Part shown: piece after piece, positions 3,312-31,564 of the stretch
Layout: each line of letters begins with the position of its first letter
How positions within the stretch are numbered: the stretch's first letter is position 1
Source: a virus
Lineage: Duplodnaviria; Heunggongvirae; Uroviricota; Caudoviricetes
Length of the DNA: 31,564 bases
Strand: one strand, 5' to 3'
Virus record (IMG/VR): IMGVR_UViG_2802429242_000004
Notes under the pieces: model-generated
Databases searched by the model: none
What the model was told of the DNA's origin: nothing
The model's input: the letters and a program-made list of their open reading frames with translations, nothing else
Translations under genes and position numbers: made by a program

Positions 3312-3583
3312 GTATTCGTATCGAAATTGGCGAACGTTATGTCGTTACCAGTGACAGCTTTCAGTTTATTCTCCACGAGAAAAAGAGAGCGGAAAGCGGT
3401 AAAAACGCCGGTCAGGAATGGCTGTCGGTGGTTGGTTATTATCCGAAATTAAGCCAGCTCGTTTCCGGCCTGATGCATCACGATATTCTGACCGGAAGCG
3501 CAAAGTCTTTTGCTGATTTAAACGCGCAGGTTGAGCAACTCAGCAAGCGTTGTTCAGAGGCTTTTGGCTCATATGGCCGTTAA
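3308..3583 (+). CDS. Early protein (P2 orf83 position)
   Basis: 91-aa ORF, start overlaps upstream stop and 3' end overlaps the start of A. Confidence 0.6.
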   Translation: MSIRIEIGERYVVTSDSFQFILHEKKRAESGKNAGQEWLSVVGYYPKLSQLVSGLMHHDILTGSAKSFADLNAQVEQLSKRCSEAFGSYGR

Positions 3584-5846
3584 AGCCTCCGGGCGTTTTG
3601 TCCCTCCGTCAGCATTTGCCGCAGACACCGGTAAGACGTTTACCGGTGCTTATGCATGGAACGCGCCACGCGAGGCTGTCGGGCGCGAAAGACCCCTTAC
3701 ACGTGACGAGATGCGTCAGGTGCAAGGTGTTTTATCCACGATTAACCGCCTGCCTTACTTTTTGCGCTCGCTGTTTACGTCACGCTATGACTACATCCGG
3801 CGCAATAAAAGCCCGGTGCACGGGTTTTATTTCCTCACATCCACTTTTCAGCGTCGTTTATGGCCGCGCATTGAGCGTGTGAATCAGCGCCATGAAATGA
3901 ACACCGACGCGTCGATGCTGTTTCTGGCTGAGCGTGACCACTATGCGCGCCTGCCGGGGATGAATGACAAGGAGCTGAAAAAGTTTGCCGCCCGTATCTC
4001 ATCGCAGCTTTTCATGATGTATGAGGAACTCTGCGATGCATGGGTTGATGCACATGGCGAGAAAGAATCGCTGTTTACGGATGAGGCGCAGGCGCATCTG
4101 TATGGTCATGTTGCTGGCGCTGCACGTGCTTTCAATATTTCCCCGCTCTACTGGAAAAAATACCGTAAAGGACAGATGACCACGAGGCAGGCATATTCTG
4201 CCATTGCCCGCCTGTTTAACGATGAGTGGTGGACTCATCAGCTTAAAGGCCAGCGTATGCGCTGGCATGAGGCGTTACTGATTGCTGTCGGGGAGGTCAA
4301 TAAAGACCGTTCTCCTTATGCCAGTAAACATGCCATTCGTGATGTGCGTGCGCGCCGCCAGGCAAATCTGGAATTTCTTAAATCGTGTGACCTTGAAAAC
4401 AAGGAAACCGGCGAGCGCATCGACCTTATCAGTAAGGTGATGGGCAGTATTTCTAATCCAGAAATTCGCCGGATGGAGCTGATGAACACCATCGCCGGTA
4501 TTGAGCGTTACGCCGCCGCAGAGGGTGATGTGGGGATGTTTATCACGCTGACCGCGCCGTCAAAGTATCACCCGACACGTCAGGTCAGAAAAGGCGAAAG
4601 TAAAACCGTCCAGCTAAATCACGGCTGGAACGATGAGGCATTTAATCCAAAGGATGCGCAGCGTTATCTCTGCCGTATCTGGAGCCTGATGCGCACGGCA
4701 TTCAAGGATAATGATTTACAGGCCTACGGTTTGCGTGTTGTTGAACCACACCACGACGGAACGCCGCACTGGCATATGATGCTTTTTTGTAATCCACGCC
4801 AGCGTAACCAGATTATTGAAATCATGCGTCGCTATGCGCTCAAAGAGGATGGCGACGAAAGAGGAGCCGCGCGAAACCGTTTTCAGGCAAAACATCTTAA
4901 CCGGGGCGGTGCTGCGGGGTATATCGCAAAATACATCTCAAAAAACATCGATGGCTATGCACTGGATGGTCAGCTCGATAATGATACCGGCAGGCCGCTG
5001 AAAGATACTGCTGCGGCTGTTACCGCATGGGCGTCAACGTGGCGAATTCCGCAATTTAAAACGATTGGCCTGCCGACAATGGGGGCTTACCGTGAACTAC
5101 GCAAATTGCCTCGCGGCGTCAGTATTGCTGATGAGTTTGACGAACGCGTCGAGGCTGCTCGCGCTGCCGCAGACAGTGGTGATTTTGCGTTGTATATCAG
5201 CGCGCAGGGTGGGGCAAATGTCCCGCGCGATTGTCAGACTGTCAGGGTTGCCCGTAGCCCGTCGGATGACGTTAACGAGTACGAGGAAGAAGTCGAGAGA
5301 GTGGTCGGCATTTACGCGCCGCATCTCGGCGCGCGTCATATTCATATCACCAGAACGACGGACTGGCGCATTGTGCCGAAAGTTCCGGTCGTTGAGCCTT
5401 TGACTTTAAAAAGCGGCATCGCCGCGCCTCGGAGTCCTGTCAATAACTGTGGAAAGCTCACCAGTGGTGATACTTCGTTACCGGCTCCCACACCTTCTGA
5501 GCACGTCGCAGCAGTGCTTAATCTGGTTGATGACGGTGTTATCGAATGGAATGACCCGGAGGTCGTGAGGGCGCTCAGGGGCGCATTAAAACACGGACGC
5601 ACCGCAAAGATTTCTGCCGTCTGTTGGTTGAATAATTCGAGATTTTTGGACATGCATAGTTCCCTTTCATCAATTAAAGACCCTTATGCCGACTGGGCAA
5701 AGAGGCTAACTGTAATGGCCTCAAATAACGACCTGAGCTCACGCGAGGTGGACAGTTACACTGAAAAAATGGTTGAACAAGCCAGTAAAGATGAGCTTAT
5801 GGTCGTTATAAAATACCTGTTAAATCACATCAGAATGAGTAAATAA
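3573..5846 (+). CDS. A: Rolling-circle replication initiator A (HUH endonuclease)
   Basis: Large ORF; start trimmed to MAVKASGRF at 3573; HUH motif TPHWHMMLF and tyrosine motif GYIAKYISKN. Confidence 0.92.
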   Translation: MAVKASGRFVPPSAFAADTGKTFTGAYAWNAPREAVGRERPLTRDEMRQVQGVLSTINRLPYFLRSLFTSRYDYIRRNKSPVHGFYFLTSTFQRRLWPRIERVNQRHEMNTDASMLFLAERDHYARLPGMNDKELKKFAARISSQLFMMYEELCDAWVDAHGEKESLFTDEAQAHLYGHVAGAARAFNISPLYWKKYRKGQMTTRQAYSAIARLFNDEWWTHQLKGQRMRWHEALLIAVGEVNKDRSPYASKHAIRDVRARRQANLEFLKSCDLENKETGERIDLISKVMGSISNPEIRRMELMNTIAGIERYAAAEGDVGMFITLTAPSKYHPTRQVRKGESKTVQLNHGWNDEAFNPKDAQRYLCRIWSLMRTAFKDNDLQAYGLRVVEPHHDGTPHWHMMLFCNPRQRNQIIEIMRRYALKEDGDERGAARNRFQAKHLNRGGAAGYIAKYISKNIDGYALDGQLDNDTGRPLKDTAAAVTAWASTWRIPQFKTIGLPTMGAYRELRKLPRGVSIADEFDERVEAARAAADSGDFALYISAQGGANVPRDCQTVRVARSPSDDVNEYEEEVERVVGIYAPHLGARHIHITRTTDWRIVPKVPVVEPLTLKSGIAAPRSPVNNCGKLTSGDTSLPAPTPSEHVAAVLNLVDDGVIEWNDPEVVRALRGALKHGRTAKISAVCWLNNSRFLDMHSSLSSIKDPYADWAKRLTVMASNNDLSSREVDSYTEKMVEQASKDELMVVIKYLLNHIRMSK

Positions 5847-5985
5847 AATGATCTATATCAAGATGTTATCTCACATTTATGAAAGTCCGTGGACAACGAT
5901 TTTTCTGCTAATTGTTGTCAGTACGTGCCTCAACAGTGTGATTGGTGCATTGCGCGGCCAGTGACAACTATAAAAATTGATCAGA

Positions 5986-6012
5986 ACCGGCACCATGAAT
6001 GCCGGTTTTTTT
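5986..6012 (+). terminator. Rho-independent terminator downstream of A
   Basis: Stem accggca (5986-5992) / tgccggt (6000-6006) with 7-nt loop, followed by a T7 run. Confidence 0.6.
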
Positions 6013-6157
6013 GTGCTTTTTCTGTGATATCCCCGTTTTTATCTGTGCATGGTTTTGCATGTGCCGGAGTTACATGTTCTGGCTGTGCGTCCGCCAGGAC
6101 TGGCGTGGCTCAAAAGCGGTATTGCAACTGCATTAAAACCGCCCCATGAAGCGGGCG

Positions 6158-6176
6158 GGCGAGGCGGGGAAAGCAC
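6158..6176. other. cos: cos cohesive-end 19-mer (ggcgaggcggggaaagcac)
   Basis: Exact match to the P2/P4 cohesive-end sequence as I recall it; lies between A and Q as expected for a P2-like genome. Confidence 0.55.
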
Positions 6177-6212
6177 CGCGCGTAAGATAAACAGAAGAGC
6201 GAAGGATTATGG

Positions 6213-6241
6213 TTGAGTATTTGTGTTTTTGTACATATGAT
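6213..6241 (+). promoter_or_regulatory. Predicted sigma70 promoter for the cargo operon
   Basis: -35 ttgagt (6213-6218), 17-bp spacer, -10 tatgat (6236-6241); RBS aaaggag before the ATG at 6283. Confidence 0.4.
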
Positions 6242-6282
6242 AAAAAGGTGTTTACGCTTAAAAACACATCAAAGGAGATGAT

Positions 6283-7584
6283 ATGGAAAATATAAAGATT
6301 GATAAGTTTCTCACTATTCAAAAAGTTGATATTCCTCTTAAGAAAGTGAATATATTTATTGGGCCTCAGGCACAGGGGAAAAGTGTCATTGCAAAGCTAA
6401 TAAAATATTTTAAAGATTACCCTATGGATATACTACGAGCTTCAACAGAGGGTAAAACTAAAAGAGATATATTGAAGGAGCAAAAGAATAAGTTTAGTAA
6501 AATTTTCCCTCAGCAGTATTGGGCTGATGATGAGTTTTTTATTGAGTATAGTAATAAGCACTATTGGGTGCGGATTACTAATCGAAAAGATAGCAAAGGG
6601 TCATTGAAAATAACCCTTTCTGAGAATTTAACGAAGACGATTGCTAAACTTCGTTTGATTGTACGAAAGGATTTAGATGAAAATATTGAGAATTCACTTG
6701 CAGAAAGCGTTACGAGAAGACGTAAACGCGGAATTGAACATGAATTGCGAGTATGTCTTTCTCTAGGATTGTTTTCAGAACCAGAAACAAAGCTTGAAAG
6801 TGTTTTTTATATCCCCGCAGGGCGCTCTTTTTTTGCTAACTTGCAAAAAAATGTGTTTTCATTTTTATCCAGTAGTATAGAAATTGACTACTTTTTGACA
6901 GAGTTTGGTTCTCTGTATGAACAAACAAAAAAATTATTTAGCCAAGATTACATGATTAGGATGCTTAGGGGGGCTGTGCCTCAACATGTTAATAAGCTTG
7001 TGGAGGAGTTGATTTGCGGAAAATATATAACAGAAAAGGGTGAGGATTTTATTCGTCATGCTGCTAAAAAGACGAATCTTAACAACTCGAGCTCAGGGCA
7101 GCAAGAAGCGTTACCAATGGCTTTAATGTTATCCTCATGGCCGTATTTACAGTCTATGACTAGTAAGAGTTTTATTATTGAGGAGCCGGAGGCTCATCTG
7201 TTTCCTTCTGCCCAAGCAAAAGTTGTATCTTTAATAGCCTCAGCGTATAACCAAGCAGAAAGCTATTGTAGCTATACAATAACAACACATAGCCCATATA
7301 TTCTAAGTGCCTTCAATAATTTGATTCAAGCAGGTAATGCATTGAAGTGTATTAAGGGCAAGAATAATGCCGATATCGAACGCTTATATAAGCTTGTTCC
7401 AGAGTCTCAAATTATTGATTTTGATGATGTGACAGCTTATATGGTTAATGCTGGGAAAGTGACGGAAATACTGGATTCCGAACTAAATATATTAGATGCG
7501 AATGAAATAGATAGGATTTCCTCTATTTTTTCAGAGACTTTTGATGCATTGATTGATATCGAATATTCGGCTACTGTGAATTAG
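6283..7584 (+). CDS. ABC-type (AAA_21/OLD-like) ATPase without a nuclease domain; candidate defence component
   Basis: 433 aa; Walker A GPQAQGKS (K33), ABC signature-like SSGQQEAL, Walker B FIIEEPE, H-loop TTHS; region is strongly AT-rich compared with the flanking phage genes. Confidence 0.75.
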   Translation: MENIKIDKFLTIQKVDIPLKKVNIFIGPQAQGKSVIAKLIKYFKDYPMDILRASTEGKTKRDILKEQKNKFSKIFPQQYWADDEFFIEYSNKHYWVRITNRKDSKGSLKITLSENLTKTIAKLRLIVRKDLDENIENSLAESVTRRRKRGIEHELRVCLSLGLFSEPETKLESVFYIPAGRSFFANLQKNVFSFLSSSIEIDYFLTEFGSLYEQTKKLFSQDYMIRMLRGAVPQHVNKLVEELICGKYITEKGEDFIRHAAKKTNLNNSSSGQQEALPMALMLSSWPYLQSMTSKSFIIEEPEAHLFPSAQAKVVSLIASAYNQAESYCSYTITTHSPYILSAFNNLIQAGNALKCIKGKNNADIERLYKLVPESQIIDFDDVTAYMVNAGKVTEILDSELNILDANEIDRISSIFSETFDALIDIEYSATVN

Positions 7585-7592
7585 GTGATTGA

Positions 7593-8030
7593 ATGTGTAA
7601 AAATTGCAAAGGAAAAACAAAAAATAAAATCATTGTGCTATCTGATAAAGGAACGTCAACGCAATTGTCAGTCATAAATGATAATGAGTTGGAGGTTGAG
7701 CATAAGTTAATAGATGGTTGCGCTATTGTTGTTGGGGAGCGGTGTGATCATTATTTGAAGATTTATAACAATCAGGATGTTTCACATCTTTTTGTTGAAC
7801 TTAAAGGAAGTGATGTTGAAAAAGCTGTTAAACAGATAGTGACAACTTTAAAGTCAGGTGTGATTAATGTAGGTGCTAAAGAAAAAAAACATGGTGCTAT
7901 TGTTAGCACTAGGAATCCGCTAAACTCAACAGAAACCAATAAGTTAAAGAAGAAAATTCTTTTGAGTGACGGAGTGAATTTGCATTTCTATAAAATGAAG
8001 GCGCAGCAAAAAATAACTTCTTTTACATGA
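7593..8030 (+). CDS. Small protein with PD-(D/E)xK-like motif; candidate nuclease effector
   Basis: 145 aa; 8 bp after the ATPase stop with its own RBS aggtga; N-terminal CxxC, then D41/D52 ... E69-L-K71 (HLFVELKGSD); lysine-rich C-terminus. Confidence 0.5.
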   Translation: MCKNCKGKTKNKIIVLSDKGTSTQLSVINDNELEVEHKLIDGCAIVVGERCDHYLKIYNNQDVSHLFVELKGSDVEKAVKQIVTTLKSGVINVGAKEKKHGAIVSTRNPLNSTETNKLKKKILLSDGVNLHFYKMKAQQKITSFT

Positions 8031-8043
8031 AGTGTTCTCTTGT

Positions 8044-8067
8044 ACAGGCATGCATTTGCATGCCTGT
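8044..8067. terminator. Hairpin between the convergent cargo operon and Q (probable bidirectional terminator)
   Basis: Perfect 10-bp stem acaggcatgc / gcatgcctgt with 4-nt loop, T-rich sequence after it. Confidence 0.5.
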
Positions 8068-8133
8068 CGTGTAATCTTTTACACTATATTTGTGTTGGTT
8101 CTAATCTTGTTATGTGTTTGTTTCGGTGATGGA

Positions 8134-9153
8134 TCATAATGAATAAGTTCGAAAGCGAAATACATCTTCGCCAACCCAACAGTTAATTTCTTTACATCGC
8201 TCTTGGAGGAACGTTAGCTCGTTGCGTACAAAGACTTGTGCTGCTTTTGTTACATCTCCAAATCCTCCTGTGTTGTTGGGCATCATTCCTATCATTTGGG
8301 GAGGCACGCGATGAGCACTCATTAGATCTTCAGCACTTGCTTTTTTGATATTAAAAAAATCGTCCTTCGTTGCCACTTCACTGAGCGGGATAATTTTAAT
8401 GCCGTCGGCTTTCCCCTGCGGGGCATAGAGAAACAGATTTTTAAAGTTATTGCGGCCTTTCGACTTAACCATGTTTTCGCGAAGCATTTCGATATCGTTG
8501 CGATCCTGCACGGCATCGGTGACGTACATGATGTATCCGGCATGTGCGCCATTTTCGTAATACTTGCGGCGGAACAGCGTGGCTGATTCATTCAGCCAGG
8601 CAGAGTTAAGGGCGCTGAGATACTCCGGCAGGCCGTACAGCTCCTGATTAATATCCGGCTCCAGCAGGTGAAACACGGAGCCGGGTGCGAAGGCTGTCGG
8701 CTCGTTGAAGGACGGCACCCACCAGTAAACATCCTCTTCCACACCACGGCGGGTATATTTTGCCGGTGAGGTTTCCAGTCTGATGACCTTACCGGTGGTG
8801 CTGTAGCGCTTTTCCAGAAACGCATTACCGAACACCAGAAAATCCAGCACAAAGCGACTGAAATCCTGCTGGGAAAGCCACGGGTGCGGGATAAACGTTG
8901 AGGCCAGAATATTACGTTTGACGTAAATCGGTGAGCTGTGATGCACGGCAGCACGCAGGCTTTTTGCCAGACCGGTAAAGCTGACCGGTGGCTCATACCA
9001 TCTGCCGTTACTGATGCACTCGACGTAATCCAGAATATCACGGCGGTCGAGTACCGGCACCGGCTCACCAAAGGTGAATGCCTCCATTTTCGGGGCGCTG
9101 GCAGTCATTGTTTTCACCGCTGGCTGCGGTGTTTTCCCTTTTTTCTTACTCAT
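8134..9153 (-). CDS. Q: Portal protein
   Basis: 339-aa ORF, P2 Q position; start overlaps the stop of P by 1 nt. Confidence 0.9.
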   Translation of the reverse strand: MSKKKGKTPQPAVKTMTASAPKMEAFTFGEPVPVLDRRDILDYVECISNGRWYEPPVSFTGLAKSLRAAVHHSSPIYVKRNILASTFIPHPWLSQQDFSRFVLDFLVFGNAFLEKRYSTTGKVIRLETSPAKYTRRGVEEDVYWWVPSFNEPTAFAPGSVFHLLEPDINQELYGLPEYLSALNSAWLNESATLFRRKYYENGAHAGYIMYVTDAVQDRNDIEMLRENMVKSKGRNNFKNLFLYAPQGKADGIKIIPLSEVATKDDFFNIKKASAEDLMSAHRVPPQMIGMMPNNTGGFGDVTKAAQVFVRNELTFLQERCKEINCWVGEDVFRFRTYSL

Positions 9154-10925
9154 CAGTAAAACTCCAGAATGGTGGATGTCAGCGGAGTGCTGATACCGGC
9201 GGTGAGTGGCTCATTTAACAGGGCGTGCATGGTCGCCCAGGCGAGGTCGGCGTGGCTGGCTTCCTCGCTGCGGCTGGCCTCATAGGTGGCGCTGCGTCCG
9301 CTGCTGGTCATGGTCTTGCGGATAGCCATGAACGAGCTGGTGATGTCGGTGGCGCTGACGTCATATTCCAGACAGCCACGGCGGATAACGTCTTTTGCCT
9401 TGAGCACCATTGCAGTTTTCATTTCCGGCGTGTAGCGGATATCGCGCGCGGCGGGATAGAACGAGCGCACGAGCTGGAACACGCCGACACCGAGGCCGGT
9501 GGCATCAATCCCGATGTATTCAACGTTATATTTTTCGGTGAGTTTGCGGATGGATTCCGCCTGGGTGGCAAAGTCCATGCCTTTCCACTGGTGACGCTCA
9601 AGTATTCTGAATTTGCCACCGGCCACCACCGGCGGTGCCAGTACCACGCATCCGGCGCTGTCGCCACGGTGTGACGGGTCGTAACCAATCCATACCGGAC
9701 GTGAGCCGAACGGATTGGTGGCAAACGGCGCATAGTCTTCCCATTCTTCCAGCGTGTCGACCATGCAGCGTTGCAGCTCCTCGAACGGGAACACCGATGC
9801 CTTGTCGTCAACAAATTCACACATGAACAGGTTTTTAAAATCGTCGGCGCTGTTTTCGCGTTTGAGCTGCTCAATGTCGAACAACGTGCAGCCACCTTTC
9901 AGGGCGTCCTCAATGGTGACAATCTGCCGCCACTGGCCGTCCGCACAGAGAAGACCACCGGCAAGGGCGTTATGACTGACGTCGATTTCCACGCGTTCGG
10001 CGGCGCTGGCGCGTCCCCGGTTAAACAGTTCACCCGACCAGAACGGGTAGGCGTCGTGCGCCAGCGTGGACGGGGTGGAGAAATAGGTCGAGCGCAGGTG
10101 ACTCTGTGAGGCCATACCTGATGCCACCTTACGCAGTACCTGAAAATTCGGGATCCAGAAAATCTCGTCGACGTACAGGTCGCCGTTATGGCTCTGCGCG
10201 GTGTTGGAGTTGGTGCCGAGAAAAATCAGTTTTGCGCCGTTATTGCCCAGGACAATCGGGTCACCGGTCAGGTCAACGTCAACCAGCCGGGCAAAGGCGA
10301 TGATGTATTCGCGGAACACATACGCCTGCGTTTTACTGGCCGACAGAAAAATCTGGTTATGGCCGGTTTTCAGGGCGCGCAGCAGCGCCTCGCGGGAAAA
10401 ATAAAACGTCGCGCCAATCTGGCGGGATTTCAGGATATCGCGGATGCGGTGCTCAAGCCCGGCGCGATACCAGTGCAACTGATATTCGAAAGACTGCTCA
10501 AAGAAAATCTGCTCCAGCTTTTCGATGGCCTCGTCACTGAAAAAATTCTTTTTCGGTTTGCGCCGTCCGCCTTTGTTGCGGTTAGCGACGTTCGGATTAA
10601 GGTCTGCCTCGTTGCCGGTCTGACTGTAACGGTTTACCCGTGCCAGTCGTTCAATCTGGCGTCCCAGCAGGTCAATTTCCTTGAAGTCACCGCCGGTTTT
10701 CTGCGGTTTGATGATGAGCTGGGTCAGCCGCGCTTCCAGACTCATTTCGACACGGCTGATGGGGGCAACGCTGTCCCAGCCGTCGCGCTGTTTCCAGCTC
10801 TGCACCGTCGGGCGTTTCATCTGCAACATGGCGGCAATCTGCGGCACGGAAAACCCCTGCCAGTACAGCAGCGCCGCCTGACGACGCGGGTCGTGCAAAA
10901 GAGTGGTGTCTGTGGTGATGGTCAT
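9153..10925 (-). CDS. P: Terminase large (ATPase) subunit
   Basis: 590 aa after trimming the start to MTITTDTTLLHDP (ATG at 10923-10925); P2 P position upstream of Q. Confidence 0.9.
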   Translation of the reverse strand: MTITTDTTLLHDPRRQAALLYWQGFSVPQIAAMLQMKRPTVQSWKQRDGWDSVAPISRVEMSLEARLTQLIIKPQKTGGDFKEIDLLGRQIERLARVNRYSQTGNEADLNPNVANRNKGGRRKPKKNFFSDEAIEKLEQIFFEQSFEYQLHWYRAGLEHRIRDILKSRQIGATFYFSREALLRALKTGHNQIFLSASKTQAYVFREYIIAFARLVDVDLTGDPIVLGNNGAKLIFLGTNSNTAQSHNGDLYVDEIFWIPNFQVLRKVASGMASQSHLRSTYFSTPSTLAHDAYPFWSGELFNRGRASAAERVEIDVSHNALAGGLLCADGQWRQIVTIEDALKGGCTLFDIEQLKRENSADDFKNLFMCEFVDDKASVFPFEELQRCMVDTLEEWEDYAPFATNPFGSRPVWIGYDPSHRGDSAGCVVLAPPVVAGGKFRILERHQWKGMDFATQAESIRKLTEKYNVEYIGIDATGLGVGVFQLVRSFYPAARDIRYTPEMKTAMVLKAKDVIRRGCLEYDVSATDITSSFMAIRKTMTSSGRSATYEASRSEEASHADLAWATMHALLNEPLTAGISTPLTSTILEFY

Positions 10926-13088: not shown

Positions 13089-13832
13089 ATGACGAGTCCC
13101 GCACAGCGCCACATGATGCGGGTCTCGGCAGCGATGACCGCGCAGCGGGAAGCCGCCCCGCTGCGACATGCAACTGTCTATGAGCAGATGCTGGTCAAGC
13201 TGGCCGCAGACCAGCGCACACTGAAAGCGATTTATTCAAAAGAGCTGAAGGCCGCGAAAAAACGCGAACTGCTGCCGTTCTGGTTGCCGTGGGTGAACGG
13301 CGTGCTGGAGCAGGGCAAAGGTGCACAGGATGACATTCTGATGACGGTCATGCTGTGGCGTCTGGATACCGGCGATATTGCCGGTGCGCTGGAGATTGCC
13401 CGTTATGCCCTGAAGTACGGTCTGACCATGCCGGGTAAACACCGCCGCACCCCGCCGTACATGTTCACCGAGGAGGTGGCGCTCGCGGCCATGCGCGCCC
13501 ACGCTGCCGGTGAGTCTGTGGATACCCGCCTGCTGACGGACACCCTTGAACTGACCGCCGCTGCTGATATGCCTGATGAAGTACGCGCAAAGCTGCACAA
13601 AATCACCGGTCTGTTTCTGCGTGACGCTGGTGATGCCGCAGGGGCGCTGGCGCACCTGCAACGCGCGACACAGCTCGACTGTCAGGCAGGCGTCAAAAAA
13701 GAGATTGAACGACTGGAGCGGGAACTGAAACCGAAGCCGGAGCCGCAGCCAAAAGCGGCCACCCGTACCCCGCGTAAGACCCGGAGCGTGACACCGGCAA
13801 AACGTGGACGCCCGAAAAAGAAAGCCAGTTAA
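13089..13832 (+). CDS. M: Terminase small subunit
   Basis: 247 aa, same length and position as P2 M; basic C-terminal tail. Confidence 0.9.
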   Translation: MTSPAQRHMMRVSAAMTAQREAAPLRHATVYEQMLVKLAADQRTLKAIYSKELKAAKKRELLPFWLPWVNGVLEQGKGAQDDILMTVMLWRLDTGDIAGALEIARYALKYGLTMPGKHRRTPPYMFTEEVALAAMRAHAAGESVDTRLLTDTLELTAAADMPDEVRAKLHKITGLFLRDAGDAAGALAHLQRATQLDCQAGVKKEIERLERELKPKPEPQPKAATRTPRKTRSVTPAKRGRPKKKAS

Positions 13833-18349: not shown

Positions 18350-19258
18350 ATGCCGATTATCGACCTGAACCAGCTACCCGCACCGGATGTGGTCGAGGAG
18401 CTGGATTTTGAAACCATTCTTGCTGAACGCAAGGCGACACTGATTTCCCTTTACCCGGAAGACCAGCAGGAGGCGGTCGCCCGTACCCTGACGCTGGAAT
18501 CTGAGCCTCTCGTCAAACTGCTGGAGGAAAATGCTTATCGTGAGCTTATCTGGCGTCAGCGTGTGAATGAGGCCGCACGGGCGGTGATGCTGGCCTGTGC
18601 CGCCGGTAATGACCTTGATGTGATTGGTGCCAATTACAACACCACGCGCCTGATTATCACTCCGGCAGATGATTCGACCCTCCCGCCGACACCGGCCGTG
18701 ATGGAATCTGACACCGATTATCGTCTGCGTATTCAGCAGGCCTTTGAAGGTTTAAGCGTCGCCGGGTCGGTGGGTGCCTATCAGTATCATGGTCGCAGTG
18801 CTGACGGGCGTGTCGCGGATATCTCTGTTACCAGTCCGTCTCCTGCCTGCGTCACCATCTCCGTGCTGTCACGTGAAAATAACGGTGTCGCATCCGAAGA
18901 CCTGCTGGCTGTGGTGCGTAACGCCCTTAATGGTGAGGACGTCAGGCCGGTGGCTGACCGTGTGACCGTGCAGTCTGCCGCCATTGTTGAATACCAGATA
19001 AACGCCACGCTTTACCTTTACCCTGGCCCCGAAAGCGAACCCATCCGCGCTGCCGCCGTGAAAAAACTGGAAGCGTATATCACAGCACAGCACCGGCTGG
19101 GGCGTGACATCCGTCTGTCTGCCATTTATGCCGCTTTGCATGTGGAAGGTGTGCAGCGTGTCGAACTGGCTGCACCACTGGCCGACATCGTGCTCAACAG
19201 TACGCAGGCGTCTTTCTGTACCGAATACCGCGTCGTGACCGGAGGCTCGGATGAGTGA
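18350..19258 (+). CDS. J: Baseplate protein J
   Basis: 302 aa, same length and position as P2 J. Confidence 0.9.
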   Translation: MPIIDLNQLPAPDVVEELDFETILAERKATLISLYPEDQQEAVARTLTLESEPLVKLLEENAYRELIWRQRVNEAARAVMLACAAGNDLDVIGANYNTTRLIITPADDSTLPPTPAVMESDTDYRLRIQQAFEGLSVAGSVGAYQYHGRSADGRVADISVTSPSPACVTISVLSRENNGVASEDLLAVVRNALNGEDVRPVADRVTVQSAAIVEYQINATLYLYPGPESEPIRAAAVKKLEAYITAQHRLGRDIRLSAIYAALHVEGVQRVELAAPLADIVLNSTQASFCTEYRVVTGGSDE

Positions 19259-19862
19259 TTCGCGACTGCTGCCGACCGGCTCATCACCGCTTGAAGTTGC
19301 CGCCGCAAAAGCCTGTGCGGAAATTGAAAAAACGCCGGTCAGTATTCGTGAGCTGTGGAACCCGGACACCTGCCCGGCAAATCTGCTGCCGTGGCTGGCG
19401 TGGTCATTTTCGGTTGACCGCTGGGATGATAAGTGGCCGGAAGCGACAAAACGCGCTGTTATCCGCGATGCGTATTTCATTCACTGCCATAAGGGCACTA
19501 TAGGCGCAATCCGGCGCGTGGTGGAGCCGCTCGGCTATCTGATTGAGGTGAGGGAGTGGTGGCAGCTCAACGAGGAGCCGGGGACGTTCCGCATCGTTGT
19601 TGGCGTGCTTGAGCAGGGTATTACCGAGGAAATGTATCAGGAGCTGGAGCGCCTCGTTGCTGATGCAAAACCGGCAAGCCGCCATCTGACGGGACTGGCT
19701 ATCAGTTTAAGTACAACCGGCAACATTTTTGCCGGTGCGGGATGCTATCACGGTGACGCCCTGACGGTTTATCCCTACACCCCGGAGGCCATTATTGTCG
19801 GAGGGGATTATTTCCCGGCCTCGGCCATTCATTTAATTGATAACCTGAGAGTAAACGCATGA
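19251..19862 (+). CDS. I: Baseplate protein I
   Basis: 203-aa ORF overlapping J upstream and H downstream. Confidence 0.85.
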   Translation: MSDSRLLPTGSSPLEVAAAKACAEIEKTPVSIRELWNPDTCPANLLPWLAWSFSVDRWDDKWPEATKRAVIRDAYFIHCHKGTIGAIRRVVEPLGYLIEVREWWQLNEEPGTFRIVVGVLEQGITEEMYQELERLVADAKPASRHLTGLAISLSTTGNIFAGAGCYHGDALTVYPYTPEAIIVGGDYFPASAIHLIDNLRVNA

Positions 19863-21076
19863 CAGTGAAATACTACGCCATTCTGACTAATCAGGGCGCA
19901 GCACGGCTGGCTAACGCGACGATGCTCGGCAGTAAGCTGAATCTGACGCAAATGGCCGTTGGTGATGCGAATGGTGTCTTGCCGACACCAGATCCGGCAC
20001 AGACAAAACTGATTAACCAGAAACGCATCGCGCCGCTGAATCTTCTGAGTGTTGACCCGAACAACCAGAGCCAGATTATTGCGGAGCAAATCATCCCTGA
20101 GAACGAGGGCGGATTCTGGATCCGTGAGATTGGGCTTTATGATGATGAAGGCGTACTCATTGCGGTGGCGAACTGCCCGGAAACGTACAAACCGCAGTTG
20201 CAGGAAGGCAGTGGTCGTACCCAGACTATCCGCATGATTCTGGTTGTCACGAATACCGAAGCTATTACGCTGAAAATCGACCCGTCGGTGGTACTGGCGA
20301 CCCGTAAATACGTGGATGATGAAGTCCTGGAATTAAGGCTGTATGTGGATGACCAGATGAGAAACCACATTGCCGCACAGGATCCTCATACCCAGTATGC
20401 ACAGAAACATAATCCGACATTTACCGGAGAACCAAAAGCGCCGACGCCTGCCGCAGGAAATAACACCACGCGGATTGCGACCACTGAGTTTGTTCAGGCC
20501 GCTATTACCGCTCTGATTAACGGTGCGCCAGCCACGCTGGACACACTGAAAGAAATTGCCGCAGCCATTAACAATGACCCGAAATTCAGTACCACCATTA
20601 ACAATGCGCTGTCAGGTAAGCAGCCACTGGATGAGACGCTGACTCATTTGAGTGGAAAGGATGTTGCCGGTCTTCTCGCATACCTTGGTTTGGGAGAAGC
20701 GGCAACGAGGAACGTCGGAACGGATACCGGGCAAGTACCAGATATGAGTAGTTTTACAACGGGGCACTCTGGAGCAGCAGACTGGCCGAATCCTAAATCT
20801 GGATGGAGTAAGGGGCCGGATGGGGTAATTACACAATGGGGTATTTTCGGTTTCCCCGTTGGACAGACAGGGACGAATGTTGTTTTCCCGCTACCTTTCC
20901 CCGCGCGGGTCGAATCAATTACACTGACAATGGCAGATATCCAGGAGTCTCTGCTTTCTCCAGCAACCATGCCTGCTTATGGAGTTAACTCAACTGGTAC
21001 TTCAAGAACGGGTTTTACAGCCCGTATGTCAGGCGCCGGTGGGTTTAATCTTTGCTATATAGCGAAAGGGAGATAA
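19859..21076 (+). CDS. H: Tail fibre protein H (constant N-terminus fused to currently expressed variable C-terminus)
   Basis: 405 aa; constant part to about residue 275 (..AGLLAYLGLGE), then the recombination site; the C-terminal ~130 aa lie inside the invertible segment. Confidence 0.85.
   Translation: MTVKYYAILTNQGAARLANATMLGSKLNLTQMAVGDANGVLPTPDPAQTKLINQKRIAPLNLLSVDPNNQSQIIAEQIIPENEGGFWIREIGLYDDEGVLIAVANCPETYKPQLQEGSGRTQTIRMILVVTNTEAITLKIDPSVVLATRKYVDDEVLELRLYVDDQMRNHIAAQDPHTQYAQKHNPTFTGEPKAPTPAAGNNTTRIATTEFVQAAITALINGAPATLDTLKEIAAAINNDPKFSTTINNALSGKQPLDETLTHLSGKDVAGLLAYLGLGEAATRNVGTDTGQVPDMSSFTTGHSGAADWPNPKSGWSKGPDGVITQWGIFGFPVGQTGTNVVFPLPFPARVESITLTMADIQESLLSPATMPAYGVNSTGTSRTGFTARMSGAGGFNLCYIAKGR
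20673..20698. repeat. Left invertase crossover site (hix/gix-like 26-bp site inside H)
   Basis: ttctcgcatacc-tt-ggtttgggagaa: two imperfect inverted 12-bp half-sites around a central dinucleotide; the 15-bp core ttggtttgggagaag is perfectly inverted at 22592-22606. Confidence 0.65.
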
Positions 21077-21080
21077 CAGA

Positions 21081-21524
21081 ATGAATAAAGTTAAAAGTGT
21101 TTACAGCCCGTCCGAAAATGCAATCTACAACGCAGCGCTATATGAAAGTTATATCAAGGAGGGGACATGGCCGCAGGATGGTATTGAAATCAGCGATGAG
21201 GATGCTGTCAGATTTAATGGGGGAAATAAGCCAACAGGAAAAATGCTGGGAATGGTTTCAGGGACCCTTGCATGGGTTGATGAGCCGCCGCTTTCACCAG
21301 AACAGAAAATATCAGATGCAGAAAACATGAAAGCCACATTTCGTGCAAAAGCTGACAGTGAAATATCCTGGCGTCAGGATGCTGTTGATGCTGGTATCGC
21401 AACTGATGAAGAAACTTCAACTCTCACCCAATGGAAGAAATACCGTGTGCTGCTGATGCGTGTTGATACATCAACAGCCCCCGATATTGAATGGCCTACA
21501 CCTCCGGCAGTTCAGGCCAGATGA
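21081..21524 (+). CDS. G: Tail fibre assembly chaperone G (for the current H C-terminus)
   Basis: 147 aa; C-terminal motif TSTAPDIEWP typical of tail-fibre assembly proteins. Confidence 0.82.
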   Translation: MNKVKSVYSPSENAIYNAALYESYIKEGTWPQDGIEISDEDAVRFNGGNKPTGKMLGMVSGTLAWVDEPPLSPEQKISDAENMKATFRAKADSEISWRQDAVDAGIATDEETSTLTQWKKYRVLLMRVDTSTAPDIEWPTPPAVQAR

Positions 21525-22098
21525 CATCCGGCGCGGTGCTGGTATCTGTTGCCGTCACCGCGTCAATGTAATCCAGCACGGCGTTAAGGCGGGTGGTTTC
21601 TGCCTGCGTCAGCCTCCGCCCGGCCTGTAATTTCAGCTGAATCAGACTGATGGAAGCCATTGCAGCATCAATCAGTGACTGGCGCTGTGCTTCTGCCGCG
21701 TCTACTGCGGCGCAATGCTGTGCCTCAGTATCGGTCACCCATTTCTCACCATCCCATTTATCGTATGGCGTTAACGGGGCGATAGTGGTTGTATTTTCGG
21801 GGTAATCACCCGGAGTTGTGATTTCTTTGGCGTCTCCCGTTTCGGTGTTATAGACGATTTCTCCGCGATGGTCTGGCACATATTCCCATGAGTTTAAATC
21901 CGCAGAGCGGCAGATGGCATAACCAGCTTTATATGTTCCTGGTGCATCTAAACAGGAACATGCCGGAATACCGACACCAACAGCAAGATATTCAGTTGAT
22001 GTGGAAATATATTCTCGTGTTTCACCATTATAATTATAGACAGTAATATCCCCCGCCTTCGTGGCAATAAGCTCGCTATTTAATACGGCATTATCCAT
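21496..22098 (-). CDS. Alternative tail fibre assembly chaperone (G')
   Basis: 200 aa on the opposite strand inside the invertible segment; same C-terminal motif (TSTAPDVIWPELP); its 3' end overlaps G convergently. Confidence 0.8.
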   Translation of the reverse strand: MDNAVLNSELIATKAGDITVYNYNGETREYISTSTEYLAVGVGIPACSCLDAPGTYKAGYAICRSADLNSWEYVPDHRGEIVYNTETGDAKEITTPGDYPENTTTIAPLTPYDKWDGEKWVTDTEAQHCAAVDAAEAQRQSLIDAAMASISLIQLKLQAGRRLTQAETTRLNAVLDYIDAVTATDTSTAPDVIWPELPEV

Positions 22099-22606
22099 TA
22101 TGCAGCCCTCACGATGTAATTAAATGAAAGGTTACGAGGGCGCATTGATATCCATGCCCCGGTAAAATTATCCTCCGCTGTCCTTTGAGTACCCGTTATG
22201 GAGTTATCTGCTGATGCAGGAACATAATCGCTATTATTTCCTGCTTTAGGATTAGCTGGGTTTCCAACAGTTATAACAGAATCAGCAGTAGCAAAAGCGA
22301 TACCTACTTTGACATTAGTATTCAGATCGTAACCGTAATAATCCTGCAAAGCTGTACGAATAAATGTTGCAGCCTGACCACTTAGCAATGAACGCCCCGT
22401 ATCAATCCCTCTAGAATCATCCCAGCCACGAATAAACTCACCACGTAAATCAGGCAATTTATTTGTCGGGTAAGCCTTTGCCAGTTCCGGGTATTCTTCA
22501 GCAGAAAAAGCTGCTCCGTTGCATTTCAGCCAGCCTGTTGGAGGTGTCTCTGAAGGCCACGGAACAGGTGCACCAACAGGTAATGCTGAACCTTCTCCCA
22601 AACCAA
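22098..22606 (-). CDS. Alternative (silent) tail fibre C-terminal segment H'
   Basis: Minus-strand reading frame continuous from the right crossover site (encodes ..LGLGEGSALPVGAPVPWP..); no own promoter or N-terminus, so expressed only after inversion. Confidence 0.75.
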
Positions 22607-22618
22607 CGTTTATGAAAA
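22593..22618. repeat. Right invertase crossover site (hix/gix-like)
   Basis: ttctcccaaacc-aa-cgtttatgaaaa; half-site TTCTCCCAAACC resembles the Gin/Hin half-site pattern (recalled), central AA. Confidence 0.65.
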
Positions 22619-22673
22619 TGCAGAGATAATGGCTAACTGGCATCATCCCCGGTTTTTATTCAGGGGATTGATC

Positions 22674-23267
22674 ATGCTTATTGGCTATATACGCGTGTCA
22701 ACAAATGACCAGAACACGGAATTGCAGCGTAACGCGCTGGAGTGCGCAGGATGCGAGCGGATTTTTGAGGATAAAATCAGTGGCACGAAGTCCGACCGAC
22801 CGGGACTGAAAAAACTGCTCAGAACATTATCAGCAGGTGACACTCTGGTAGTCTGGAAGCTGGACCGGCTGGGGCGTAGTATGCGGCATCTGGTCATTCT
22901 GGTTGAGGAGCTGCGCGAACGCGGCGTTAATTTTCGCAGCCTGACAGATGCTATTGATACCAGCACGCCGATGGGGCGTTTTTTCTTTCATGTGATGGGT
23001 GCCCTGGCTGAAATGGAGCGAGAACTCATTGTCGAGCGGACACGCGCCGGACTGGAAGCGGCCAGAGCCAAAGGGCGTATTGGTGGCAGACGTCCGAAGC
23101 TCACCGCGAGTGAGTGGGAACAGGCAGGACGGTTGCTGGCTGCGGGTGAATCACGTCAACGCGTGGCGCTGATTTTTGATATTGGCCTGTCCACGCTCTA
23201 TAAAAAATTCCCCTCATCAGCGGCAAAGAATAAATTGTGTCATCCCTTAGCCAACCGGGACAAATAG
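22674..23267 (+). CDS. Site-specific DNA invertase, serine recombinase (Hin/Gin/Cin/Pin family)
   Basis: N-terminus MLIGYIRVSTNDQ with the catalytic serine; resolvase/invertase catalytic domain plus C-terminal HTH; immediately next to the right crossover site. Start trimmed from the track's 22629. Confidence 0.9.
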   Translation: MLIGYIRVSTNDQNTELQRNALECAGCERIFEDKISGTKSDRPGLKKLLRTLSAGDTLVVWKLDRLGRSMRHLVILVEELRERGVNFRSLTDAIDTSTPMGRFFFHVMGALAEMERELIVERTRAGLEAARAKGRIGGRRPKLTASEWEQAGRLLAAGESRQRVALIFDIGLSTLYKKFPSSAAKNKLCHPLANRDK

Positions 23268-29929: not shown

Positions 29930-29939
29930 TTACAAACAG

Positions 29940-29969
29940 AAAGCCCCTCAGTCGAGGGGCTTTTTTTGT
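29940..29969 (+). terminator. Rho-independent terminator after ogr
   Basis: Stem agcccctc (29942-29949) / gaggggct (29954-29961), 4-nt loop, T7 run. Confidence 0.8.
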
Positions 29970-29970
29970 C

Positions 29971-29996
29971 GATGTGGTCAATGTGTGGACGTGACC
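29971..29996. repeat. Candidate Int arm-type sites on the ogr-side arm
   Basis: tgtggtca ... tgtgtggac direct repeats related to the tgtggacact repeats at 10-30. Confidence 0.35.
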
Positions 29997-30031
29997 AGAA
30001 ATAAATCCTTTTATTTCAATTTGTTGTACGT

Positions 30032-30058
30032 AAAAAATAAGCCCGTGTAAGGGAGATT
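30032..30058. other. attR: attR core (P2-type 27-bp core aaaaaataagcccgtgtaagggagatt)
   Basis: Matches the P2 attP/attB core as I recall it; lies at the phage/host junction and coincides with the cyaR terminator. Confidence 0.7.
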
Positions 30059-30118
30059 ACACAGGCTAAGGAGGTGGTTCCTGGTACAGCTAGCATTTTA
30101 TGGGTTATGTTTTTCAGC
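30032..30118 (-). ncRNA. cyaR: CyaR (RyeE) Hfq-dependent sRNA
   Basis: Minus strand reads gctgaaaaacataacccataaaatgctagctgtaccaggaaccacctccttagcctgtgtaatctcccttacacgggcttatttttt (87 nt), matching CyaR as recalled, including the anti-SD-like CCACCUCCUUA and a terminator hairpin plus U-run. Confidence 0.8.
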
Positions 30119-30139
30119 GAAACAGATAATAACCTTAAT

Positions 30140-30202: not shown

Positions 30203-31564
30203 TCACTTACCGTGCGGGTTACGCGTGGTTTCCCCGGAGAAATTACGCATCAGCAGTGCGTAATTCAGCTCGAGATCCTGCGGAACCGGGAGCCACACGG
30301 TATAGCCATCGCCAGGCGCGACCGGCATCGCTTCACCTTTGGCGTTTTCCATGTGCTCAAGGGTAAAGTTGATATTGCCCTGTGGCGTCATCAGTTCCAG
30401 GCTGTCGCCAACGGAGAATTTATTTTTCACCGCTACGGCTGCCAGAGAGCCTTTACGCTCACCGGTAAACTCTCCAACAAACTGCTGGCGGTCAGAAACG
30501 GAATAACCGTATTCGTAGTTCTGGTAATCGTCGTGAGTATGACGACGCAGGAAACCTTCGGTGTAACCACGATGCGCCAGGCCTTCCAGTGTTTCCAGCA
30601 GGCTGGTGTCGAACGGTTTGCCCGCAGCGGCGTCATCGATAGCTTTACGATAAACCTGCGCGGTACGTGCACAATAGTAGAAAGATTTAGTGCGGCCTTC
30701 GATTTTCAGCGAATGCACGCCCATTTTGGTCAGGCGTTCAACGTGGGCGATGGCGCGCAGATCTTTCGAGTTCATGATGTAAGTGCCGTGCTCATCTTCA
30801 AACGCGGTCATATACTCGCCCGGGCGCTGGGCTTCTTCGATCATAAACACTTTGTCGGTTGGCGCACCGATACCCAGCGTCGGCTCGACGTTTTGCACCG
30901 GAATCGGCTCGTATTTGTGTACGATGTTGCCAACGTCATCTTCTTTCCCTTCCTGCACGTTGTACTCCCAACGGCAGGCGTTGGTGCAGGTGCCCTGGTT
31001 TGGATCGCGTTTGTTGATGTAGCCAGAGAGCAGGCAGCGGCCGGAGTAGGCCATGCACAGCGCGCCGTGAACGAAGATTTCAAGCTCCATATCCGGAACC
31101 TGATTGCGGATCTCTTCAATCTCTTCCAGCGACAGCTCGCGGGAGAGGATCACGCGGGTCAACCCCATTTGCTGCCAGAATTTCACCGTCGCCCAGTTTA
31201 CGGCGTTGGCCTGCACGGAAAGGTGGATCGGCATTTCAGGGAAGTGTTCACGCACCAGCATAATCAGCCCCGGATCGGACATAATCAGTGCGTCCGGCCC
31301 CATTTCCACCACCGGTTTCAGATCACGGATAAAGGTTTTTAGCTTGGCATTGTGTGGCGCAATGTTGACCACGACATAAAACTTTTTCCCCAGCGCGTGG
31401 GCTTCATTGATGCCGAGCTGGAGATTTTCGTGGTTAAATTCGTTGTTGCGCACACGCAGGGAGTAACGCGGTTGCCCCGCATAAACAGCATCTGCGCCAT
31501 AAGCGAAAGCGTAACGCATATTTTTCAGCGTTCCCGCCGGGGAAAGGAGTTCCGGTTTAAACAT
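30203..31564 (-). CDS. yegQ: Host U32-family peptidase-like protein YegQ (RlhA)
   Basis: 453-aa ORF starting MFKPELLSPAGTLKNMRYAFAYGADAVYAG, recognised as E. coli YegQ; codon usage and GC differ from the cargo; convergent with ogr as in the K-12 yegQ-ogrK locus. Confidence 0.85.
   Translation of the reverse strand: MFKPELLSPAGTLKNMRYAFAYGADAVYAGQPRYSLRVRNNEFNHENLQLGINEAHALGKKFYVVVNIAPHNAKLKTFIRDLKPVVEMGPDALIMSDPGLIMLVREHFPEMPIHLSVQANAVNWATVKFWQQMGLTRVILSRELSLEEIEEIRNQVPDMELEIFVHGALCMAYSGRCLLSGYINKRDPNQGTCTNACRWEYNVQEGKEDDVGNIVHKYEPIPVQNVEPTLGIGAPTDKVFMIEEAQRPGEYMTAFEDEHGTYIMNSKDLRAIAHVERLTKMGVHSLKIEGRTKSFYYCARTAQVYRKAIDDAAAGKPFDTSLLETLEGLAHRGYTEGFLRRHTHDDYQNYEYGYSVSDRQQFVGEFTGERKGSLAAVAVKNKFSVGDSLELMTPQGNINFTLEHMENAKGEAMPVAPGDGYTVWLPVPQDLELNYALLMRNFSGETTRNPHGK

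Follow-up and report, generated by a model that had tools for sequence, protein, structure and literature searches.

Genes and boundaries of the prophage

The window, by which we mean the whole stretch of 31,564 nucleotides that was analysed, contains a prophage of E. coli very close to P2, in which a 19-nt cohesive end is flanked by replication gene A on one side and portal gene Q on the other, with an accessory (cargo) operon between this cohesive end and Q. Gene A (3573..5846, + strand, with the P2-aligned start; the mechanical open reading frame begins at 3531) matched Pfam Phage_GPA (E = 2.4e-122), and its product was 97.5% identical to P2 A over residues 1–674 and divergent thereafter. 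Portal gene Q (8134..9153, − strand; Pfam Phage_portal) differs from P2 at its C-terminus and is followed by large terminase gene P (9153..10925, − strand; Pfam Terminase_6N, 6C and Terminase_5). Small terminase gene M was located at 13089..13832 on the + strand (Pfam Phage_term_smal, E = 5e-48). The cognate terminase, gpM and gpP, is encoded full-length in the same element as cos.

A tblastn search of the window was conducted with every P2 protein. The identities were 99.7% for gpP, 98.0% for gpM, 100% for gpN, 100% for repressor C, Cox and Ogr, 98.8% for Int and 90.9% for gpQ. All P2 essential genes are present as full-length matches with 82–100% identity, save tail-fibre genes H and G, which are other alleles (40–42% identical). 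No tblastn match in the window was obtained for orf30, fun(Z), orf91, tin or old, the accessory genes of P2. A resolvase-family invertase gene (22629–23267, + strand) was observed at the position of P2 Z/fun, with a tail-fibre collar fragment (22098–22646) and a tail-fibre assembly gene (21496–22098) beside it on the − strand; the segment 21496–23267 looks like an invertible tail-fibre segment of the Mu/P1 style. No tum-like antirepressor gene was found between A and cos. Given a repressor C identical to that of P2 and the lack of a tum-like gene, the prophage would not be SOS-inducible and would seldom be released.

The right end of the prophage is marked by the attR core at 30031..30057 (+ strand), corresponding to the P2 attP core AAAAAATAAGCCCGTGTAAGGGAGATT. 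Window positions 29930–30058 were 98.5% identical to P2 24255–24382, and the homology ends with the annotated attP core. The host sRNA gene cyaR (30035–30120, − strand, 100.7 bits) runs into this core with its 3′ end, and a U32 peptidase gene follows in 30203–31564. By analogy with P2, attL would lie approximately 79–105 bp beyond the left end of the window; the length of the excised genome, counted to the attR core with approximately 79 bp added for the part outside, is therefore an estimate, approximately 30.1 kb, which falls inside the 28.9–33.8 kb span of related phage records.

The cargo operon comprises two genes on the + strand. The first (6283..7584) encodes an AAA_15-type ATPase of 433 aa (Pfam AAA_15, E = 8e-21) with PADLOC matches to PDC-M29A (E = 2e-31) and AriA (E = 1.7e-25). 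The second (7593..8030) encodes a 145-aa partner with a weak PADLOC match to PDC-M29B (E = 2.8e-4). The GC content of the cargo is 0.33–0.39, versus 0.50–0.59 in A, Q and P. Of 27 related loci, drawn from many phyla, 21 have the partner gene directly downstream of the ATPase gene, and the two genes form a portable cassette. None of the 27 related loci from other bacteria had cos, gpA or gpQ beside the cargo relatives. In a collection of 50,697 records, the cargo was absent from isolated phages, and only two weak matches (27–34% identity) were obtained, both in unannotated faecal phage contigs. By sequence, the pair seems to resemble candidate defence systems, and it consists of variable, non-core genes absent from P2, as in the definition of the gpA–gpQ accessory-gene hotspot.

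A promoter candidate for the cargo, TTGAGT-17-TATGAT, was observed at 6213–6241; promoter-like sites in this region were no more numerous than in shuffled sequences. A hairpin with a perfect 10-bp stem is located at 8042..8065, between the convergent cargo operon and Q, and the fold of 8025–8140 on the − strand gave −23.7 kcal/mol (z = −4.3). This hairpin lacks a clear T run and received no call in the terminator scan; it is possibly a two-way terminator that stands in for P2 tQ. The scan did detect an intrinsic terminator after gene A (5983..6009, + strand), with a 10-pair stem and a T run. It occupies the position of 186 t95b (186 30436–30463); homology to 186 starts at window position 5986, equivalent to 186 30437. 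The two mechanical open reading frames spanning the cos region, 5889–6149 (+ strand) and 6133–6321 (− strand), gave no family match and are probably not genes.

The cohesive end and its conserved core

The sequence GGCGAGGCGGGGAAAGCAC occupies 6158..6176 on the + strand and is present as a single copy in the window, even when up to three mismatches are allowed. None of 100 dinucleotide-preserving shuffles of the window contained a match, and no match is expected by chance. In the P2 record (NC_001895), positions 1–19 are annotated as 'cosL; left cohesive end' and positions 33575–33593 as 'cosR', and both are identical to the window 19-mer. The first 19 nt of the P4 record (NC_001609) are likewise GGCGAGGCGGGGAAAGCAC. 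The annotated cos of 186, GGCGTGGCGGGGAAAGCAT, differs from the window sequence at two positions (17/19). An initial annotation had recognised the P2/P4 cohesive end in this 19-mer, in the orientation expected for P2, and alignment to the two reference records (19/19) bore out the identification. The orientation was confirmed by gene order and strand: A (+) lies upstream of cos, and Q and P (−) lie downstream, as in P2. The distance of approximately 310 bp from gene A to the genome end, also proposed there, was found to be 311 bp from the A stop codon (5846) to the 19-mer.

The position of the cut was derived from reference records. The 186 record describes its cos with the wording 'top strand cut at 5' end and bottom strand cut at 3' end', and the linear records of 186, SEN1 and EtG terminate within one base of window position 6157, the base preceding the 19-mer, which is where the top-strand cut is expected. 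We infer staggered cuts at 6157/6158 on the top strand and at 6176/6177 on the bottom strand, which would leave 5′ overhangs. Under the convention of the P2 map, position 6158 would be the first base of the packaged genome, and the cargo start codon would lie 126 nt in from that end; the proposal that the packaged genome begins with the cargo operon is thereby supported, and the record ends of 186, SEN1 and EtG agree with it.

The 19-mer lies in a conserved core at 6122..6183, which also takes in 36 bp to its A side and 6–7 bp to its Q side. Among 77 distinct sequences, most core columns were conserved at a level of at least 0.9, with a few dips to approximately 0.65, and conservation collapsed to the left of 6122. 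When the window was compared with the end-to-end junctions of P2, P4 and 186, 31–32 of 36 bases were shared on the left, 17–19 of 19 in the 19-mer and 5–6 of 7 on the right. Little similarity among these four sequences was observed beyond the core, and all four differ to the right of it. Window positions 6129–6182 matched P2 at 52 of 54 bases (96.3% identity). Homology to P2 and to three related loci (L008, L033 and L014) stops at 6182, and its onset in relatives with unrelated flanks falls at 6123–6129. A 55-bp P2/P4 cos core, attributed to Ziermann & Calendar 1990, is described in passages of two later papers (PMC9594776, PMC5694545); the core at 6122..6183 agrees with it and is its counterpart.

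A GC-rich inverted repeat, CCGCCC-N8-GGGCGG (6139..6158), adjoins the top-strand cut and was called on the − strand by the terminator scan. Its right arm is almost invariant, and its left arm is variable: at least one pair was lost in 21 of 30 distinct variants, and no compensatory changes were found among the 30. A hairpin or terminator role for this repeat was rejected, given that the left arm varies without compensation and the right arm is kept as sequence.

The A-side motif and cargo on the two sides of cos

A second element is located on the A side of the core. The distal motif TGCATGGTTTTGCAT (6046..6060, + strand), with the consensus TGCAT-N4/5-TTGCAT, starts at −112, approximately 111 bp from the cut. 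The consensus was detected with a start between −122 and −95 in 79 of 83 sequences; of 63 distinct spacer classes, 55 had it between −114 and −108. Elsewhere it occurred at a control rate of 1.3e-4 per position. P2, P4 and 186 all carry it at −111. The sequences to the left of the core fall into approximately 60 unrelated classes, with a mean identity of 34% between −96 and −37. The distal motif is a candidate terminase-recognition element or contact. A CAG-N-CTGG palindrome at approximately 6093–6103 was also seen by eye in many flanks and is absent from P2.

On the Q side, five independent cargo modules (those of the window and L005, of L006 and L007, of L027, of L065 and of L069), together with P4, depart from the P2-type flank 24–27 bases from the top-strand cut. 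On these comparisons, approximately 125 bp on the A side look constrained, versus only 6–7 bp beyond the 19-mer on the Q side. The minimal cos fragment is reported to be approximately 125 bp. Longer cos flanks raised cosmid transduction by orders of magnitude according to PMC9594776, in a passage that does not state which side matters; this effect is consistent with a one-sided signal. The claim that the cargo has not disrupted the packaging signals finds support in these comparisons: the core is intact, the distal motif lies at its usual distance, the terminase is 98–99.7% identical to that of P2, and foreign DNA starts from the same point in P4, phiCTX and five other P2-like loci.

The distribution of cargo was examined in 80 loci collected by portal protein, in which the 19-mer was scored at no more than one mismatch. 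All but one (79 of 80) contained it, with Q and A on either side and in the window orientation in every case. The cos–Q side lacked cargo in 73 of these 79 loci, and the remaining six carried 1.4–2.1 kb between cos and Q. Layouts were counted in the 71 sampled loci with A, cos and Q all present. Cargo on the A side alone (the P2 type) was found in 61 loci, cargo on both sides of cos in five and no cargo in four; cargo on the Q side alone was found in one locus, L005, which is the same element as the window. The A-side bay is occupied in 66/71 loci, versus 6/79 for the Q-side bay. L005 is also the one other contig that combines Q-side-only cargo with a 311-bp A–cos spacer. In the other cos-to-Q bays, every gene points away from cos. 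L006 (11018–13084) encodes a 442-aa ATPase and a 205-aa protein, L027 (6503–8608) proteins of 360 and 229 aa, L065 (11018–12474) a single 333-aa protein, and L069 (8171–10063) proteins of 204 and 353 aa.

Eight complete E. coli genomes contain a stretch 100% identical to window 5850–8140. These genomes, with the same cos and cargo, have an extra block of approximately 1.2 kb separating A from the cos flank, made up of a GNAT acetyltransferase gene and two hypothetical ones, and hence cargo on both sides. In E. coli strain 2452 (NZ_CP031833), the extra GNAT block lies at 18827–19997 of locus L085, and the prophage is located beside pflA, an integration site unlike that of the window. No complete E. 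coli genome among 5,426 contained the A–cos–cargo–Q stretch of the window in contiguous form. The cargo adjoins the portal gene in all 10 complete E. coli genomes that have it.

The block replaced relative to P2-type alleles extends from 6183 to approximately 8332 and includes the divergent 3′ end of Q. The last approximately 66 codons of Q (8134–8332) are a divergent allele of lower GC content, and identity to P2-type alleles is 95–97% from 8333. The window Q product has 339 aa and ends in FRTYSL, versus 344 aa and DTDND in P2. This C-terminal allele is inherited together with the cargo block; a related allele occurs in L006 and L007, whose Q-side cargo is a different one. On the other side, the C-terminal approximately 85 residues of A (approximately 5595–5846) belong to a non-P2 allele common to L005, L014, L033, L053 and L059, loci with a short A–cos spacer of 311–325 bp, which places one mosaic junction inside gene A. 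Partial matches break at 6123 and 6182, indicating that the A-side and Q-side bays are swapped independently of each other and share the core as their boundary.

One base invites a more specific account of the exchange. At position 6177, directly after the 19-mer, only the window, L005 and P4 have C, and 79 of 80 others have T, which may hint at exchange with a P4-like satellite. The portal-side half of cos and the cargo would then derive from such a satellite by recombination inside the shared core, an account of origin only and one compatible with a working cos. The location of P4 cargo on the same side of cos, the mosaic junctions that hug the core at 6123 and 6182, and the cos-mediated exchange proposed in a passage of Rousset et al. 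(PMC9122126) all accord with this origin. It is nevertheless unlikely: the evidence amounts to a single nucleotide, the 10 complete E. coli genomes with the cargo all show a P2-like context, beside the portal gene, and cargo relatives in other bacteria are not beside cos. Another P2-like phage is the likelier donor, because the replaced block enters the 3′ end of Q and satellites have no Q.

A probable working cos and known systems

The 19-mer of the window very probably functions as cos in a P2-type prophage. Once the prophage has excised and replicated, its circular genome would be recognised by the terminase, with gpM as the small and gpP as the large subunit; the P2 terminase prefers circular monomers as substrate. 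The top strand would be nicked ahead of 6158 and the bottom strand 19 bp further on, past 6176. The expected product is a linear genome of approximately 30.1 kb with 5′ single-stranded ends of 19 nt, which would re-anneal after injection. The recognition signal would be lopsided, with approximately 125 bp on the gene-A side (the core from 6122 and the motif at 6046–6060) and 6–7 bp on the portal side, so that foreign DNA could abut the portal side, as in P4 and the window, without harm to packaging. Cutting at 6158 and 6176 in this prophage is itself inferred from sequence.

We tentatively propose a more general model, which we hold to be possible and not yet probable. The packaging signal of the P2 family may consist of two parts on one side, namely the core of approximately 60 bp and the TGCAT-N4/5-TTGCAT element approximately 111 bp (roughly 10.5 helical turns) towards A, where the small terminase would dock. 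The core may also serve as a 60-bp homology anchor for independent swaps of the cargo bays by phages and possibly by satellites. If true, this model would explain why accessory DNA is found as close as 6–7 bp past the portal side of cos (in the window, P4 and five other modules) and never between the motif and the cut.

It is quite improbable that the intact-looking cos belongs to a prophage that no longer makes particles and reflects recent descent rather than use. The P2-type immunity, which implies a prophage that is not SOS-inducible and is rarely released, and the rarity of the exact mosaic, which is common only to the window and L005, would suit such a relic. Against it, every P2 essential gene is full-length at 82–100% identity, H and G excepted as other alleles, and the core, distal motif and attR core are all intact, with no sign of decay. 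A chance match or another element, such as a terminator hairpin, can practically be dismissed: the adjoining inverted repeat does score as a terminator on the − strand, but its stem shows no compensatory changes, the 19-mer was found in 0/100 shuffles at up to three mismatches, and conservation extends over approximately 60 bp of flank with three reference phages.

For a working cos in the window, the ends of the mature genome are fixed, with 6158 on the left and 6157 plus the overhang on the right, and correct annotation is the main value of the result. The only accessory operon adjacent to cos lies at the left genome end, versus the right end for tin and old of P2. The gpA–gpQ hotspot can be described as two bays split by an invariant core of approximately 60 bp, and the sharp portal-side boundary is useful for the design of P2/P4 cosmids. 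Current understanding is unchanged by the finding.

Compared with the cos of P2, the 19-mer, its position between A and Q, its orientation and the near-identical terminase are the same. The flanks differ: P2 has orf91, tin and old (3.26 kb) between A and cos and only 167 bp between cos and Q, whereas in the window the A–cos spacer is 311 bp and cos is separated from Q by 1,957 bp of cargo. Outside the core, the window has an A-side flank of the 186 rather than the P2 type, with 74% identity to 186. P4 shares the 19-mer, the core, the C after the 19-mer and TGCAT-N5-TTGCAT at −111, and its accessory genes (gop, beta and cII) follow the core directly on the same side; however, P4 is an 11.6-kb satellite without terminase or structural genes, in which the cargo is followed by int and not by a portal gene. 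Lambda cos (cosQ–cosN–cosB) is alike in working, in that terminase makes staggered nicks at a defined site and the recognition region lies on one flank; the lambda overhang is 12 nt, versus 19 nt for P2-type cos, and its sequence and terminase are unrelated to those of P2.

The layout of the window has documented precedents. In phiCTX (NC_003278), cosL is followed by ctx (+ strand, with its own promoter), terminators and Q (− strand), and both cohesive ends are annotated; phiCTX differs in being a Citexvirus with a 21-nt cohesive end of another sequence and a toxin gene instead of an ATPase pair. In 186-related prophages, the retrons Ec67 and Ec86 are flanked by cos and the terminator of the portal gene (Dodd & Egan 1996, as cited in a passage of PMC5694545). 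As described there, foreign DNA replaces the interval from cos to the end of the portal operon in E. coli P2-family prophages, as in the window; the cargo is a retron, and the 186 19-mer differs at two bases. The same source, citing Nakayama 1999 and Dodd & Egan 1996, suggests the cosL-to-Q position as a hotspot. The defence hotspot of P2 is defined in the relevant passages as the gpA–gpQ interval 'adjacent to the cos site' (Rousset et al. 2022, PMC9122126; PMC13586616), and in P4 the hotspot lies directly beside cos, with cos-driven exchange offered as a speculation (Rousset et al. 2022, PMC9122126). The window cargo, an ATPase and partner pair, falls inside this interval; the definition as given in those passages spans gpA to gpQ without naming a side of cos, whereas the window cargo lies on the Q side alone, as in 1/71 loci. 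In light of phiCTX, PMC5694545 and Rousset et al., the window presents a known element in a known, less common layout.
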